Shown here: piece after piece, positions 6,115-37,600 of the stretch | How positions within the stretch are numbered: position 1 is the stretch's first letter | How the letters are laid out: every line of letters starts with the position of its first letter | Assembly (NCBI GenBank): GCA_951406725.2 | Contig: OX597827.1 | Span: 3,286,001 to 3,350,000 of the forward strand | DNA length: 64,000 nt | Reading direction: 5' to 3' | DNA from: Octopus vulgaris | Lineage: Eukaryota | Position numbers and translations under genes: made by a program | Notes under the pieces: generated by a model | Told to the model about the DNA's origin: nothing | The model's input: the letters and a program-made list of their open reading frames with translations, nothing else | Database searches by the model: none

Positions 6115-6314
6115 TTTGTTTCAGTCATTTGACTGTGGCCATGCTGGAGCACCGCCTTTAGTCGAGCAAATCGACTGCAGGACTTATTCTTTGTAAGCCC
6201 AGTACTTATTCTATCGGTCTGTCTTGATGAACCGCTAAGTGACGGGGACATAAACACACCAGCATCGGTTGTCAAGCATTGTTGGGGATACAAACACAGA
6301 CACACAAACATATC

Positions 6315-18700: not shown

Positions 18701-19898
18701 ATCCTATCACCTATGCCACTAGCTGGCATATACAGGTGCTTACATTTATCAAGTATTCACCCTGAATTTATTGTACCTAACTATATATACATATATATGT
18801 ATATATATGGCAGGCTGCTTTCAACTTCCATCCACCAAATCCACACATAAGGCTTTGGTTGGCCCAAGACTATAGTAGAAGGCACTTGCCCGAGGTGCCA
18901 CACAATGGGACTGAACCCAGAACTATGTGGTTAGGAAGCAAGGGTCTTACCACAGATTTACACATGCACTTTTTTTCTTAAATTTGAATGAAATAGTCTT
19001 AGATATGTGAAGAGATATGACCTGGTGTGCTGCACTCACAATCACACAGCTCAGCAGTTTGAGCTGTCTTCTGCTAAAGCCCTAGGTCATAGTGCACTGA
19101 ATTTGATAGATGGAAACAGCATAGATGATCATTTGTGTTTATGCTTGTCTTTGCTGTTAATGCTTGTCTCCCACCATCATGTGACAACCTGTGTTGGTTT
19201 GTTTACATCATGTAACTTAGCAGTTTTGCAAAAGACATTAACAGGATACCAGACTTAAAATATACTGGGGTCAATTTGTTCAACTACACATTCAAGTTGG
19301 TACCCAGTATGGCCAGTCTGAAACAAGTAATCTATAAAAAGGTAACACTGAGGATGACCCTACATGATTGCCAGCATTTAGTTCTTGTTTTGTAGCTGTT
19401 GTTCTACCCCATAATTTATGATTGCGATTGGGTAAATGGACAGATGCAGAATTAAAAGTTTGCATTGTAGAACACATTATTTAACTGTAAGGAGGTTCAT
19501 TAGGAGTGATGACAGTGATTATGACCCTTCACATCACCATCATCCTCATCATCAACCCCTGGACATTACTGCCCCAAGTACTAGGAATCATAAGGCCAGT
19601 TACTCATTTTTCATTGGGTATAAGTGACCAAGATCACAGCATTTTCTGTGAATGGGACACGTTCTGAATTTACAGCTGCGTGGACTGAAGCAACATAAAT
19701 TGAAGTATTTTGCTCAAGAACAGAATGCACTACCTGGTCCAGGAATTGAAACTATGATCTTGTAATTGTTAGAACAACACCCTAACCACTAGGCCATGTG
19801 TCTTTGGTTCACTTACCACTAAAACCAGTGGAGAGAGAAAGATCCCTTCAAACCAGAGACCTAGCTTTAACATTTGCAACAGAAAGACCCTGCTAAAG

Positions 19899-20154
19899 GT
19901 ACACAAGGAATCAAGTACCCAATGGACCAGGTACCCAATGAACTAGCTGTCCAAGGAACCAGATGCAGAAGAAACCAGAAACCCAAGGAACTAGGTACCC
20001 ATGGCACCAGGTATCCAAGGAACCAGGATCCCAAGGAATCAGGTACCCATGAAACCAGGTACCAAGGAACCAGCTAGCCAAGGAACCAGGTACCCATGGG
20101 ACCAGGTACCCAAAAAACCAGGAACCCATGGAGCCAGGTATCCAAGGAACCAGG
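19899..20154 (+). repeat. Minisatellite, ~15-16 degenerate copies of 16-bp ACCCAAGGAACCAGGT
   Basis: Consecutive units such as ACCCAAGGAACTAGGT ACCCATGGCACCAGGT ATCCAAGGAACCAGGA. Confidence 0.92.
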
Positions 20155-32849: not shown

Positions 32850-33570
32850 TCTATATTACTGGTATGTAACCCATGACAATTGAAGGGATGAAGAAACAGG
32901 CCAGTCAGGGCAATATTCCAAGTCAGAAAGTAAATCAACATAAACGTATGGTATAAAATATTTATGGTGGTGTCTGAATTTGAGAAAGATTCTACATGAC
33001 AAATTAGCAGCAAGTGCAGCCTTTGTACAAATGAATTATGTCTGAAACATATTTGAACTAACCTAAATGTTTGTTTGTTTGCAACACTGCCCCAGAACAC
33101 ACCAGTCACATCAACAAGTTTGTCAATTGTTTTCTCCAAGATCAGTTCATGAATTTTTGTGATGTTTTCATTTGTTTGGGTGGTCAGTGGTCATCCTGAA
33201 TGAGGTTGGTCGTCAAGCAACAAGTGACCATTCCAAAAGGATTAGAAACCACTCGTAAACTTGTGTTTTGCTCTCATGGCAGCATTCTTGTAAGCTGTTT
33301 GAAGCATGACAACTGTTTTGGCTGCCATTTTTCTCAGTAGAAAGCGGAATTTCACAGAAGCATGTTGTTCCTTCATTTCAACCATCACAAAAATCGATGG
33401 ACAGAGGAGAAGCACTGCAAAACAAATATGCACCACAGGGCAGTACGACTTCACATGATGCTGCTGGTCAGCAGACCGATGCCTGAGGGTTGCATCAAGT
33501 GGCAGAAGCCTGAACCAGAATAGGTTTGTCCCACAGAGAATGTTTCCAGTTACTTTTGGGACCCCCTTGT
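32850..33570 (-). mobile_element. Decayed mariner (GVQW3-like HTH) transposase with TIR-like 5' end
   Basis: MKEQHASVKFRFLLRKMAAKTVVMLQTAYKNAAM... /VYEWF/ ...DDQPHSG*PLTTQTNENITKIHELILE.../TIDKLVDVTGV; frameshifted. Terminus CAAGGGGGTCCCAAAAGT. Confidence 0.8.
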
Positions 33571-33599
33571 GTATGTGTATATATATATATATATATATA

Positions 33600-33836
33600 C
33601 TTTATTTAAAGCAGCAGAAAATTCAACAAAATCTGTTACTCTGAGATTCTCGTTGCCGTTCATCAGACAGTTTTTGCTATAATTTTAGCAAAAACTGTCT
33701 GATGAACGGCAACGAGAAACTCAGAGTAACAGATTTTGTTGAATTTTCTGCTGCTTTAAATAAAGCATATTACTCTACCACTGGTATTTGAGTACTCTTT
33801 TTTCCACCTTGTTTCACATTTATGTGTTTACTCCAG
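33600..33836 (+). mobile_element. Head-to-head palindromic HHR element (80-bp arms, 33600-33765) with unique 3' tail, inserted in (TA)n
   Basis: Arms are reverse complements around taattt (33680-33685); each arm contains the HHR. Confidence 0.85.
33691..33737 (+). ncRNA. Minimal type I hammerhead motif (GUA site)
   Basis: AAAACUGU CUGAUGA ACG-GCAA-CGA GAAA CUC-A-GAG UA ACAG AUUUU. Core intact, GNRA loop 2, A-A mismatch closing stem II. Confidence 0.8.
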
Positions 33837-34161
33837 TATATATATATATATAAAAGGTACAAGGAGATTTATTTCATTTCTTCTCCCTTTCTAGACATAA
33901 ACAACCACAATAATTATCACTGATGAGCAATATTCTTCCACTGATACATATGTTTAACCTGTCTCACTTCAATGACAGGATATTTGGCCTATGGAATCCT
34001 CACTTGACATGATGTTCCAATAGCTGGGATATTTTAGAAACAGCTGTTAGAGATGATGTAAACCATTTATTATATAGATACATTAAATGTCCTTGTCAAG
34101 TCTTGCCAAACTGTTTGCCCATACTTTCTTTTCTGCTTTTATGTATGTATATATATATATA

Positions 34162-34231
34162 CTTGATTAAAAAGCAGCAAAAATATCACAAAAACTGTTA
34201 CTCAGAGTTTCATATTTCTGTTTGTCAGACA
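34162..34231 (-). mobile_element. Degenerate truncated copy of the same HHR element, between TA tracts
   Basis: UGU CUGACAA ACAGAAAUAU GAAA CUCUGAG UA ACAGUUUU. Confidence 0.7.
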
Positions 34232-34234
34232 TAT

Positions 34235-34290
<56 letters not shown>

Positions 34291-34292
<2 letters not shown>

Positions 34293-34608
34293 GGAGTAAA
34301 CACATAAATGTGAAACAAGGTGGAAAAAAGAGTACTCAAATACCAGTGGTAGAGTAATATGCTTTATTTGGAAGAAACAGAAAATTAACAAAATCTGTTA
34401 TGTTTGTGTGTCTGAGTTTGTCCCCTAGCATTGCTTCAATCAGACAGTTTTTGCTAGAATGGAACTGATATATCAATTCAATCGATTATCAATTCAAAAG
34501 ATTGAATTGATATATCAGTTCCATTCTATATAAAACTGTCTGATGAACGGCATTACGAGAAACTCAGAGTAACAGATTTTGTTGAATTTTCTGCTGCTTA
34601 AAATAAAG
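34291..34608. mobile_element. Second palindromic copy of the HHR element, flanked by (TA)n; tail on the left arm
   Basis: 34291-34362 is the reverse complement of 33765-33836; the arms meet at ~34480-34500. Confidence 0.85.
34532..34580 (+). ncRNA. Minimal type I hammerhead motif (GUA site)
   Basis: AAAACUGU CUGAUGA ACG-GCAUUA-CGA GAAA CUC-A-GAG UA ACAG AUUUU. Confidence 0.78.
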
Positions 34609-37600
34609 TATATATATATATATATATATTCACAGGCATACACATACATATTATACACACTCACAAAGACATATACTTGCGTATTTAGATTGGATTGTGT
34701 AAGTGTCAATACTATATTAAGTATTATCCTGGTGTAGGAGAAGCTTCCAATGGATAAGGGAATTTGTCAGTGTGTGAGCATCTCTTTAATAAATCACCCT
34801 TTGTGTTTAGACAGTTGCCTAAGCTATTAACTTATCCAATATAAGCTTTGCTGGGATGACCAGTCTAATTTGTATAATTATTTTCTAATTTTCAGAAAAT
34901 TGGTGTATTTTTCTCCAATAGATCTCCAAATAGAGATGCAAGTAGTCGGCACAACCCCAGTATTTTCTGTTCTGGAGAAAAGAAAATATTTGTTTCCATG
35001 TTACAGTAAGGTCTGTAACTCAAGAACTGTAGAGTTTTGGTAATGTGCTCTTGAGTGCACTGTACCTAGGAGAAAGATGTTTTGGCCACTATTAGAATGC
35101 CATTAATCACAGAGCTGTTCAATCAGGACTTAAGAGGGGTAGGAAACTAAATGGTAACAGCAACAACAAGCACAGAACCTTAACAGAAAAATATAAAATA
35201 CATAAAAAATGGTTTTAAAAAAGCCAACAGCTATTTGTAAGCACTTACTCTCCTATTTGTCCACATTTTCTAATACCTCACTTAGCTACCTTTCTATTAA
35301 TAGTTCTTCCAACAACAGTAACAATACCAACAGCAACAATGCCAACAATAACAACAACATTATCAGCATCAACAATTAAAGCTGTTATTCTGAATTCTGA
35401 TACATTTTAACACTAATAACAAAACTTCCTCCCTTCTTTTACTCTCTTTCAATTTCCCTCTCTTTCCTCCTCTCTTTCTCTCTCAGTTTCTCTTGTACTG
35501 ATTTAAAACAATTGCCCCCATTAATATTTTACAACACCCTCATTAACCCTTTCCACGATACACTGGAAATGTTGGATGATAGGAGATAGCTTTTTATAAT
35601 TATTTATTGATTATTCTGTCAGAGAAAACAAACTTGGCACAAACAACAAGAACCATTCATATTTCTGGTTGGAAAAAGAAAGGAGAGAGAAAAGCAGTTG
35701 AATACTGTACACACACACACACACACACAAATACACACACACACACAGATACATACGTATGTATGTGTGTATGTATGTATAGACATACACACATACACTC
35801 TACTTGTGTCTGTTTTTATTACCTTTCCTCACACCCTATTAATGCATCTTTTTTTAATATCCTCTGGTATTTTCCGGAGCCATTAGCTTTAGCTATAATT
35901 GATGCTATTTCTCAACTATTATTCTAACTACAAATCACCTGAGTTCCTCTTTTAGAACAACCATTCTGAATTTACCTTCCCCAACCTAGCACAGCAATTA
36001 TTTGTGCTACACTGACCATTCATTCCACCATATTTGTTCCTCCTATTCTAACATTGTCTGTCACCATCAATACTTATAACTATCTTCATTTCAAATTTAT
36101 CATTTCAAATTGAGTTGTGCCAATGTTTCTTCAGAGTTTATCCTCAGACATTCATTTACACCTAGCTATACAAATATACAAATATACTTTTTACAGCCAC
36201 ACATCTTCTTTATTCTCAATATTCCTACCAAATTTAGTGTTGTCTTCTTTGAAAAATCGATTGCTACCATATTTATCCTTGCTTATCATGTATGGAGGGT
36301 GGGGGCCAGTTAATTGTGAGGTCAAGGACAACACGAGAGCATGAGTTCAAAACTTAGTACAACCTTTGTAATATGTTCACGAGTAAAATAGAAAGCCCCA
36401 GCCGTCTCAGTTTTATTGACCACTGACAGTTTCTGGCATAGTTAGGGAAAGGGCAAACATCAAGCTGTGATGCTACTTTAATGATATGAATAAATAAATG
36501 CTCATCTATAAAATACAAGAGCTTTGGTTGGTCAAGTTTGACCATGCATTTGAGTAAGACTGGCAATTGCCTACACAAGCATGTCTCCCCTTTCCATGGC
36601 TTTGATGTTTATTCAAAAAGTAAGACTCTTTTCTTGGGTATGACATGTTTTGACATAACTGTTTTGGTGCTGACTATTTGACATTACTGATTCAATGATG
36701 ACTTATTTGACATTTGCTTTAATCTCTCTCTCTCACTCTCTCTCTTTTTCTCACTCACTCTCTCTCTCTTTCTCTCACACACTCTCTCTCTCTTTTTCTC
36801 ACTTACTCTCTCTCTCTTTTTCTCACTCACTCTCTCTTTCTCTCACACTCTCTCTCTCTCTCTCACTGTTTATGTGTATAAACATCACATTTCTATCTAC
36901 ACGCATGAGGAGAGGGAAATGTTTATATCAATTATATCAATTATATCAATTATGTTCAATTAATAAACTGTAATGTCTGTCTCTCTCACTTTTTCTTTCT
37001 ATGTGTGTTCATTCTTGCTTCCAGTGCCAAGATGTACTGTCACCAAAACAAGCTGAATGTCCAATGAGCCATGCCAAATTAACAGCAGGCAAACAGCTGC
37101 ACCCAATTATCTCATTCCTAGCTTACATGGGTTCATACAGCTTGGCACCATTATCATAGCAAGCTTTGCCATCAGTACACAAAAAGCTGAAACAGAGACT
37201 GGAAGCTATTTTGCCTAACACTTTACCAGTTCCATCGACCCCCTTCCCTGGATTAGGTCCATTTTTGATTCACCCCAAGAAGATGAAAAGTAAAGTTGAT
37301 TTCAGTGAGATTGGAACTTACAGTGCAGAAAGTCAGAATAAATATTGGTTTCAAATTTTGGCATAAGGTCAGAAATTTTAAGAGAGTGGGTAAGTCAATT
37401 ACATTGACCCCAGTAATCAACTGGTACTTAACTTATTGACCCTGAAAGAATGAAAAACAAAGTTGATCTCAGCAGAATTTGAACACAGAACATAAAGACA
37501 AACAAAATGTGCCTAAGCATTTCGCCTGGCATGCTAACGATTTTGCCAGATCGCTACTTTAGTCGGAACAAATATCAGTTTCGAATTTTATCACAAGGCC

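Follow-up and report, generated by a model that had tools for sequence, protein, structure and literature searches.

Paired head-to-head fragments of a candidate Hydra-clade Penelope-like element with eroded hammerhead motifs in TA tracts of Octopus vulgaris

Described Penelope-like elements and the octopus family

Among the traits described for Penelope-like elements (PLEs) are copies that are inverted and 5'-truncated, a tail on one side only and insertion into (TA)n (PMC8557442; PMC3846280). How PLEs form inverted insertions and what role their hammerheads play are stated as open questions (PMC8557442 section 15; PMC11167929). The Hydra clade of PLEs is defined by the motifs RWK, DKT, CxCX5C, CxxC and CxH and by the lack of CCHH (PMC8557442 section 11). 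Poseidon_Ac of Anolis carolinensis belongs to another clade and inserts into an AT-rich target. In vitro, both strands of the target are nicked and extended, and reverse transcription has two internal start sites, both inside the ORF, which delimit the tail. Uncleaved RNA is used, mutants of the hammerhead ribozyme (HHR) insert normally, and the studied template needs sequence downstream of the tail; the available text gives no genome-wide counts of arm pairing or 5' ends (PMC11167929). The minimal dimeric type I HHRs of metazoan PLEs have a palindromic stem III and lie mostly in dispersed truncated copies; pairs of them on opposite strands, separated by 100-700 bp, are on record, as is a low activity in vitro (PMC4209133). 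Metazoan non-LTR retrozymes (PMC7229834; bioRxiv 10.64898/2026.07.22.740005) also carry a type I HHR in a short dispersed PLE-linked repeat, arranged in head-to-tail non-coding tandems. In a literature search on octopus hammerheads, PMC8557442 was the only relevant paper found.

We analyzed a stretch of 64,000 nucleotides of O. vulgaris contig OX597827.1 (positions 3,286,001 to 3,350,000; the window), which is AT-rich and dense in microsatellites. Five related arms in three units, each unit flanked by TA tracts, were located at 33578-34628. An earlier note on this DNA had described two head-to-head palindromes and one truncated copy, and that layout was confirmed (33595-33770; 34291-34483 with 34500-34608; lone arm at 34162-34231). 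Element 1 lies between the target tracts (TA)11 (33578-33599) and (TA)8 (33837-33852). Its tail-less arm on the minus strand (33600-33682) begins at the inner 3' end of the family and has a core-defective HHR. The HHR part of the tailed arm follows on the plus strand (33683-33765) and belongs to a young subfamily; both arms carry the TTTAAA variant, and the arms at 33595-33682 and 33683-33770 form a near-perfect palindrome (97% complementary). The tail of approximately 70 nt between the inner and outer 3' ends of the family occupies 33766-33836 on the plus strand and pushes the right edge of the element out to 33836.

Element 2, flanked by a (TA)7 tract (34148-34161), is a single tail-less arm on the minus strand (34162-34231). 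It comes from the oldest sampled subfamily, is diverged (76% to the full unit) and is predicted to be dead. A (TA)27 tract (34237-34290) separates it from element 3, which starts with a tailed minus-strand arm (34291-34483; tail at 34291-34361) whose HHR core is overwritten at 34401-34436. A junction spacer of 16 nt (34484-34499), which in part repeats a short stretch of the arm end in reverse complement, leads to a tail-less plus-strand arm (34500-34608) with the TTAAAA variant, which stops at the inner 3' end next to a (TA)10 target tract (34609-34628). The two tails, one arm per palindrome, had escaped the first description; they form a further inverted repeat of 95 nt at 99%. No host exon was recognised in an ORF scan of the window, which is not a gene finder. 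In a search of sequencing runs no RNA run was listed, an outcome that has no bearing on expression.

The cluster appears to consist of 5'-truncated ends (pLTR plus type I HHR) of a young Hydra-clade PLE that represents a new family. In the assembly (2.8 Gb, 227 contigs) the arm gave 97-100% matches on many contigs, and an exact 33-mer of the tail occurs in at least 5,046 copies (reversed control, 0). An exact 37-mer of the HHR occurs in 3,526 copies against 0 for its reversed control, so the HHR motif is not a chance occurrence. Longer copies contain an ORF for a GIY-YIG-type endonuclease and reverse transcriptase (RT) upstream of the end fragment. In loci L136 and L139 an unbroken RT/GIY-YIG ORF of 711 aa lies between direct pLTRs, whose HHRs are spaced by 3,352 and 3,362 nt, respectively, with the unit taken as 3,352 nt. 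In unit coordinates that run from the outer end (0), the HHR would be cut at -108/-107, its C3 is position -137, and the ATG of the ORF is at +68.

This single ORF combines RT with a C-terminal GIY-YIG-type endonuclease and shows YRDD and GVVY...YTG. A homologue of the 711-aa protein (P0002) carries PF01541, which we take to be the GIY-YIG family. RWK and DKT are present (RRLRWKAFFF and SDKTRNLY), and the CxCX5C linker reads CNCKNESSC in L139 and is a CNFK variant in L136. CCHH is lacking, with a cysteine-free GIY-YIG core, and CRLC (CxxC) and CRH (CxH) stand at the end. The HHR in the pLTR, the direct pLTRs in partial tandems and the (TA)n insertion are further traits of the clade; its descriptive size of generally <3 kb is exceeded by the unit of 3,352 nt. 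We provisionally assign the family to the clade on these motifs. Pfam, NCBIfam and PDB sequence scans of the 711-aa ORF gave 0 matches. The protein had 1,074 homologues at E<=1e-20 among 7,996 candidates, and nearly all of the 120 listed were nameless.

Three other assignments were considered. The Neptune clade was dropped once the motifs had been compared with the Hydra definition. A non-LTR retrozyme, with its short head-to-tail non-coding tandems, does not correspond to what is found here, namely head-to-head fragments colinear with an autonomous protein-coding element. A MITE was rejected since the ends are asymmetric (one-sided tail) and the center differs from copy to copy, with no symmetric terminal inverted repeats around a fixed body.

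The family has in common with published Hydra-clade PLEs the C-terminal endonuclease, the five motifs and the lack of CCHH, the HHR in the pLTR, the (TA)n target, the inverted 5'-truncated copy and the one-sided tail (PMC8557442). It differs from them in its tail (approximately 70 nt vs. 30-40 nt), its 1.15-kb 3' UTR and the A·A at positions 10.1-11.1. The HHR of Hydra-2_Amil (Hydra-2_aMil) from Acropora millepora is the same in stem I, core, stem III and cut site, whereas stem II and the loop III base differ. Hydra-1_Obim from Octopus bimaculoides is another family, with a different HHR and a length of 2,507 nt vs. 3,352 nt here. Beside copies of the family, ORF pieces were seen on the minus strand at 92-2336 in L149 (G000:C1:8641000-8650500) and at 8833-9417 in L031. 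From their translation we take them to be unrelated LINE-type retrotransposons.

Hammerhead motifs at the locus and in the subfamilies

In the two plus-strand HHRs, which are the only full type I descriptor matches in the window, C3 falls at 33699 and 34540, a spacing of 841 nt. Both have all single-stranded core bases, a stem III of ACUC-A-GAGU and a GUA cleavage triplet. In element 1, the 5' strand of stem I extends to 33698, A10.1 (33706) faces A11.1 (33715), G12 is at 33716, stem III spans 33719-33727 and the predicted cut falls after 33728. In the element 3 copy, G12 is at 34559 and the predicted cut falls after 34571; loop II of this copy is enlarged by 2 inserted nt, and its outer strand of stem I is altered. 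Stem I consists of 4 bp, a mismatch and then more pairs, and stem III of 4 bp, 1 nt and 4 bp, the central base being A, T or C depending on the subfamily.

The intact cores reported earlier at 33691 and 34532 hold for the core bases. They do not hold for the closure of stem II, where A·A stands at 10.1-11.1 in both plus-strand copies in place of a pair, next to 2 Watson-Crick pairs. The 'highly conserved' G10.1-C11.1 of PMC4209133 is thus absent, and stem II comprises only 2 bp and a mismatch. HHR motifs had likewise been reported on both strands. The set C3 U4 G5 A6 N7 G8 A9, G12 A13 A14, A15.1-U16.1 and H17 was found in the two plus-strand copies only, and all three minus-strand cores are defective: A15.1 is changed to U at 33646 in element 1, G8 is changed to A with CpG-type decay in stem II in element 2, and in element 3 the last 36 nt of a different, abundant repeat stand in place of the core.

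The Rfam hammerhead search proposed earlier returned 0 matches in the window at the gathering score, and none of the 89 matches at E<=10 over 33400-34800 was to a hammerhead. Matches to Rfam microRNA models were all below the gathering score and reflect the palindrome. Folding of single arms gave no significant z-score (best, -1.67). The description of a minimal PLE-type HHR whose palindromic stem III needs a dimer agrees with the published set, in which loop III is a single nucleotide in 16 of 25 Hydra-clade HHRs (PMC8557442 File S2). The idea that the palindromic arms sequester the HHRs as dsRNA is upheld as a folding prediction. At this locus the motifs are predicted to be passengers of the pLTR, trapped in hairpins.

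We grouped 220 HHR-covering arms, a sample partly chosen by pattern, into subfamilies that diverge from their own majority by 8.5%, 6.0%, 2.7%, 2.1% and 1.7%. From old to young, stem I position 1.5 changes from a paired U to C, G and A, position 11.1 from a paired U to G and A, and position 4 from C to U. The pairing changes accordingly, with A-U giving way to A·G and then A·A in stem II and A-U to A·A in stem I. Matches to the three states of 10.1-11.1 numbered 1,937 (A-U), 1,264 (A·G) and 3,809 (A·A) genome-wide. The eleven invariant core bases are the same in all majority rows, and the fact that distant families keep the HHR motif is an argument for selection acting in the source elements. 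A natural variant, U4C, is known to have lower activity, and U·U is the best-tolerated mismatch at 10.1-11.1 (PMC3088659). Among the Hydra HHRs listed in PMC8557442, U·U occurs there in 14 of 25 and A·A in 0 of 25.

Among genomic copies, preferential conservation of core nucleotides over flanks, the test named in the earlier note, was not observed (2/975 vs. 32/5124, p=0.15; in the old subfamily 21/207 vs. 44/437, p=1.0). An apparent conservation of the core in young copies (p ~0.001-0.002) was gone (p=0.15) once position -70, where tail-less arms end, was removed. The core decays like the flanks, as expected of dead copies.

Paired arms, 5' ends and the proposed insertion mechanism

For a census of the family we took the first 100 exact tail matches on contig C1; 99 were examined and 92 insertions were counted, with 7 read-through or tandem rows (L080, L136, L139) left out. 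The counts refer to one contig and to copies with an exact tail. TA ends were found in 90 of the 92 insertions. An inverted arm was present in 73/92, and 19/92 were single-armed. The inverted arm stopped at the inner end, approximately 70 nt upstream of the outer end, in 68 of 73 cases, elsewhere in 5 and at the outer end in 0. The two-armed, one-tailed shape was also seen at the kilobase scale and in the oldest subfamily. The head-to-head palindrome is the default form of the family.

Locus L139 (G000:C1:64214300-64224200) has two near full-length arms with two inner pLTRs head-to-head; the 711-aa ORF is unbroken in one arm and frameshifted in the other. In L080 (G000:C1:11812000-11817000) two tails stand head-to-head and one side reads through into the 5' body of the element. 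This is the sole tail/tail junction in the sample apart from L139.

Our explanation as a whole, to which we give a probability of approximately 0.8, is that the locus holds three ends of one Hydra-clade family, inserted independently into TA tracts by putative twin priming on uncut RNA. Identity with the pLTR of ORF-bearing copies, the copy number, the two fixed 3' ends and the two-armed default were directly observed. The element endonuclease would nick both strands of a (TA)n tract, and a single element RNA would then be the template for both of the 3' ends so made, with reverse transcription starting at the outer site from one and ~70 nt further upstream, at the inner site, from the other. 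The cDNAs would both extend toward the 5' end of the RNA, ordinarily a transcript start near -154, and would anneal via microhomology to give a head-to-head palindrome with one tail. The rarer long palindromes may arise when a tandem is transcribed by read-through and priming takes place in its downstream pLTR. Poseidon_Ac likewise has two RT start sites that bound a tail; there they lie inside the ORF, whereas here the outer site is 67 nt upstream of the first ATG (PMC11167929). Two primings on RNA that was probably not cut by the HHR would fit the one-tailed pairs, the matched arm lengths and a 5' pile-up away from the cut site. In a literature search, with most subscription papers out of reach, no published twin-priming account of Penelope palindromes was found.

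Arm lengths were compared in 66 pairs. Both arms were long in 10, both short in 55 and mixed in 1 (Fisher p 5e-11), and the tail-less arm reached further 5' in 35, the tailed arm in 19 and neither in 12. Head-to-head junction palindromes of rotifer Penelope elements have been attributed to self-priming on an antisense template (PMC3846280). A fold-back of this kind, with either an antisense strand or the first cDNA as template, could be combined here with independent insertions. Junctions that overlap by at least one base (46/66) and identical arms fit such a fold-back. It predicts one fixed longer arm, however, and since either arm can be the longer, neither is a simple fold-back copy of the other. 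Fold-back alone also leaves unexplained that the outer ends occupy two fixed positions corresponding to known RT start sites, and we regard it as improbable. A two-state variant agreed between the arms in 48/48 young palindromes (36 + 12); in older subfamilies the arms disagreed in 7 of 97 pairs at stem I position 1.5 and in 9 of 79 at 11.1. Gene conversion or trimming after joining could be another source of the agreement.

The twin-priming proposal also concerns the 5' ends, which were mapped for 158 arms with BLAST end points that may overshoot by a few bases. An initiator-like motif lies at -156 to -150 and a TATA-like motif at -181, 27 nt upstream of the putative start. Forty-six of 158 arms end at -155 to -150, just inside the initiator-like motif, and the rate of 5' stops is ~9% per nt at -151 to -160 vs. 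0.13% per nt beyond -161. This pile-up lies approximately 45 nt 5' of the predicted HHR cut. At the cut itself, to within 1 nt, only 2 of 158 arms end, as expected from the local background (15 in 21 nt). As ends pile up upstream of the cut and occur at background rate at the cut, it is simplest to suppose that most templates begin near -154, a start read from DNA ends only, and would be uncleaved by the HHR.

The modal end, -151 (17/158), is a 4-base palindrome, which indicates that microhomology shapes the 5' peak. With the rest of the model unchanged, the peak could instead mark the base of HHR stem I as a place where RT stalls or where structure guides the joining; besides the palindrome, its position within 5 nt of the end of the stem I 5' strand speaks for this. 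Yet single-armed copies end there too (6 of 19 at -141 to -160), and several copies of the oldest subfamily, which is without that palindrome, end at the same place. The region from -161 to -200 is almost empty of ends, and 19 four-base palindromes lie beyond -161, with few ends there. We consider a stall or hot spot unlikely, though less so than fold-back.

Among the observations against the twin-priming proposal are the 19/92 single-armed insertions, the 5 odd second arms, element 3, which reaches -177 and so passes the putative start, and the disagreement between arms of older copies. A wider reading would take the palindromes as an in vivo record of insertion: twin priming at two fixed sites of one uncleaved mRNA, with run-off at a capped 5' end 45 nt upstream of the cut. 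The HHR helices of source elements would then have eroded without loss of mobility, which would place self-cleavage outside the making of templates. We offer this reading tentatively, with somewhat less than even confidence.

The locus itself is of little weight, and the statistics of the family are the useful part, since inverted insertion and the role of the HHR in PLEs are the questions stated as open. This family is young and has unbroken ORFs, and its two-armed copies, nearly identical, number in the thousands; it yields sharp predictions: a start near -154, two RT start sites, one RNA per insertion and uncleaved templates. What is new here is a census of an autonomous element, together with a 5' boundary that lies upstream of the cut and an erosion of the HHR helices that proceeded in steps. 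The family would also have supplied the genome with short perfect hairpins, several thousand in number, which if transcribed may be substrates of RNA editing or small-RNA pathways.

Dimer formation, local re-insertion and the element 3 chimera

The two plus-strand HHRs had been suggested to act as a dimer in one transcript, regulated by the arms, in a cluster formed by local re-insertion. In favor of a dimer, a nested fold is predicted to be topologically possible, with all 20 enforced pairs Watson-Crick, and a rough calculation with an N-linker gave -28.1 vs. -28.4 kcal/mol for two free arms as a dimer. Enforcing the 841-nt dimer, however, costs a predicted 99.8 kcal/mol in 33590-34630 and still 34.1 kcal/mol without the left arm of element 1. 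The penalty persists because the left arm and tail of element 3 pair with the right arm of element 1. A·A closes stem II, and the fragments at the locus lack the downstream region, past the tail, that is required in the template of the studied PLE (PMC11167929). In tandem copies, the pLTR that follows at a distance of 3,352 nt is the natural partner for a dimer.

A second insertion within 1.5 kb was found at 9 of 121 loci, by our own reading and excluding 8 cases that are two arms of one insertion, vs. 0.36% per kb on either side expected from the density of exact tails, a lower bound for family size. This excess would suit local re-insertion. At 6 of the 9 sampled loci, though, the neighbor belongs to another subfamily, which points to TA-rich hot spots struck at different times. 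Elements 1 and 3, both young, differ at diagnostic positions (the two-state site, the last tail bases and the 5' extent), and element 3 carries sequence missing from element 1; element 2 belongs to the subfamily that is ~8.5% diverged. Because the variants and subfamilies differ, no element can be the parent of another without back-mutation. The suggestion of an arm-regulated dimer together with local re-insertion is therefore highly improbable. Going by these differences, the three elements were likely inserted independently into neighboring TA microsatellites.

The junction of the element 3 left arm with the other repeat occurs once in the assembly. In contigs of four DNA-type runs, no listed piece spans an element junction by 31 letters on each side (element 2 is uncovered). 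Low-depth contigs without the family's extra C at 34386 were found in 3 of the 4 runs, and one contig of run X3 is without the 2-nt gap at 34553. These contigs hint that the odd letters of element 3 may be real and not an assembly artefact. In loci L047 and L126 the palindromic parts are full of deletions and the tail outside the hairpin is clean; this may reflect sequencing or assembly trouble in hairpins, which bears on element 3 as well.

The donor of the 36-nt piece is a very abundant, unrelated repeat that is usually followed by CA/TA tracts. Its ends were seen in the window at 6274, 7258, 27820, 29297, 30496, 38847, 40041, 56336, 56846 and 57232. The segment 33826-34033, made up of the end of the element 1 tail, the TA tract and unique flank, is represented by contigs in all four runs under two organism labels. 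The element 1 insertion may thus be shared between the two labeled organisms, with too little element sequence in these contigs to count as a bridge. At 19897-20154 the window also holds a tandem array with a 16-nt period and ~16 copies, unlike the nearby microsatellites.
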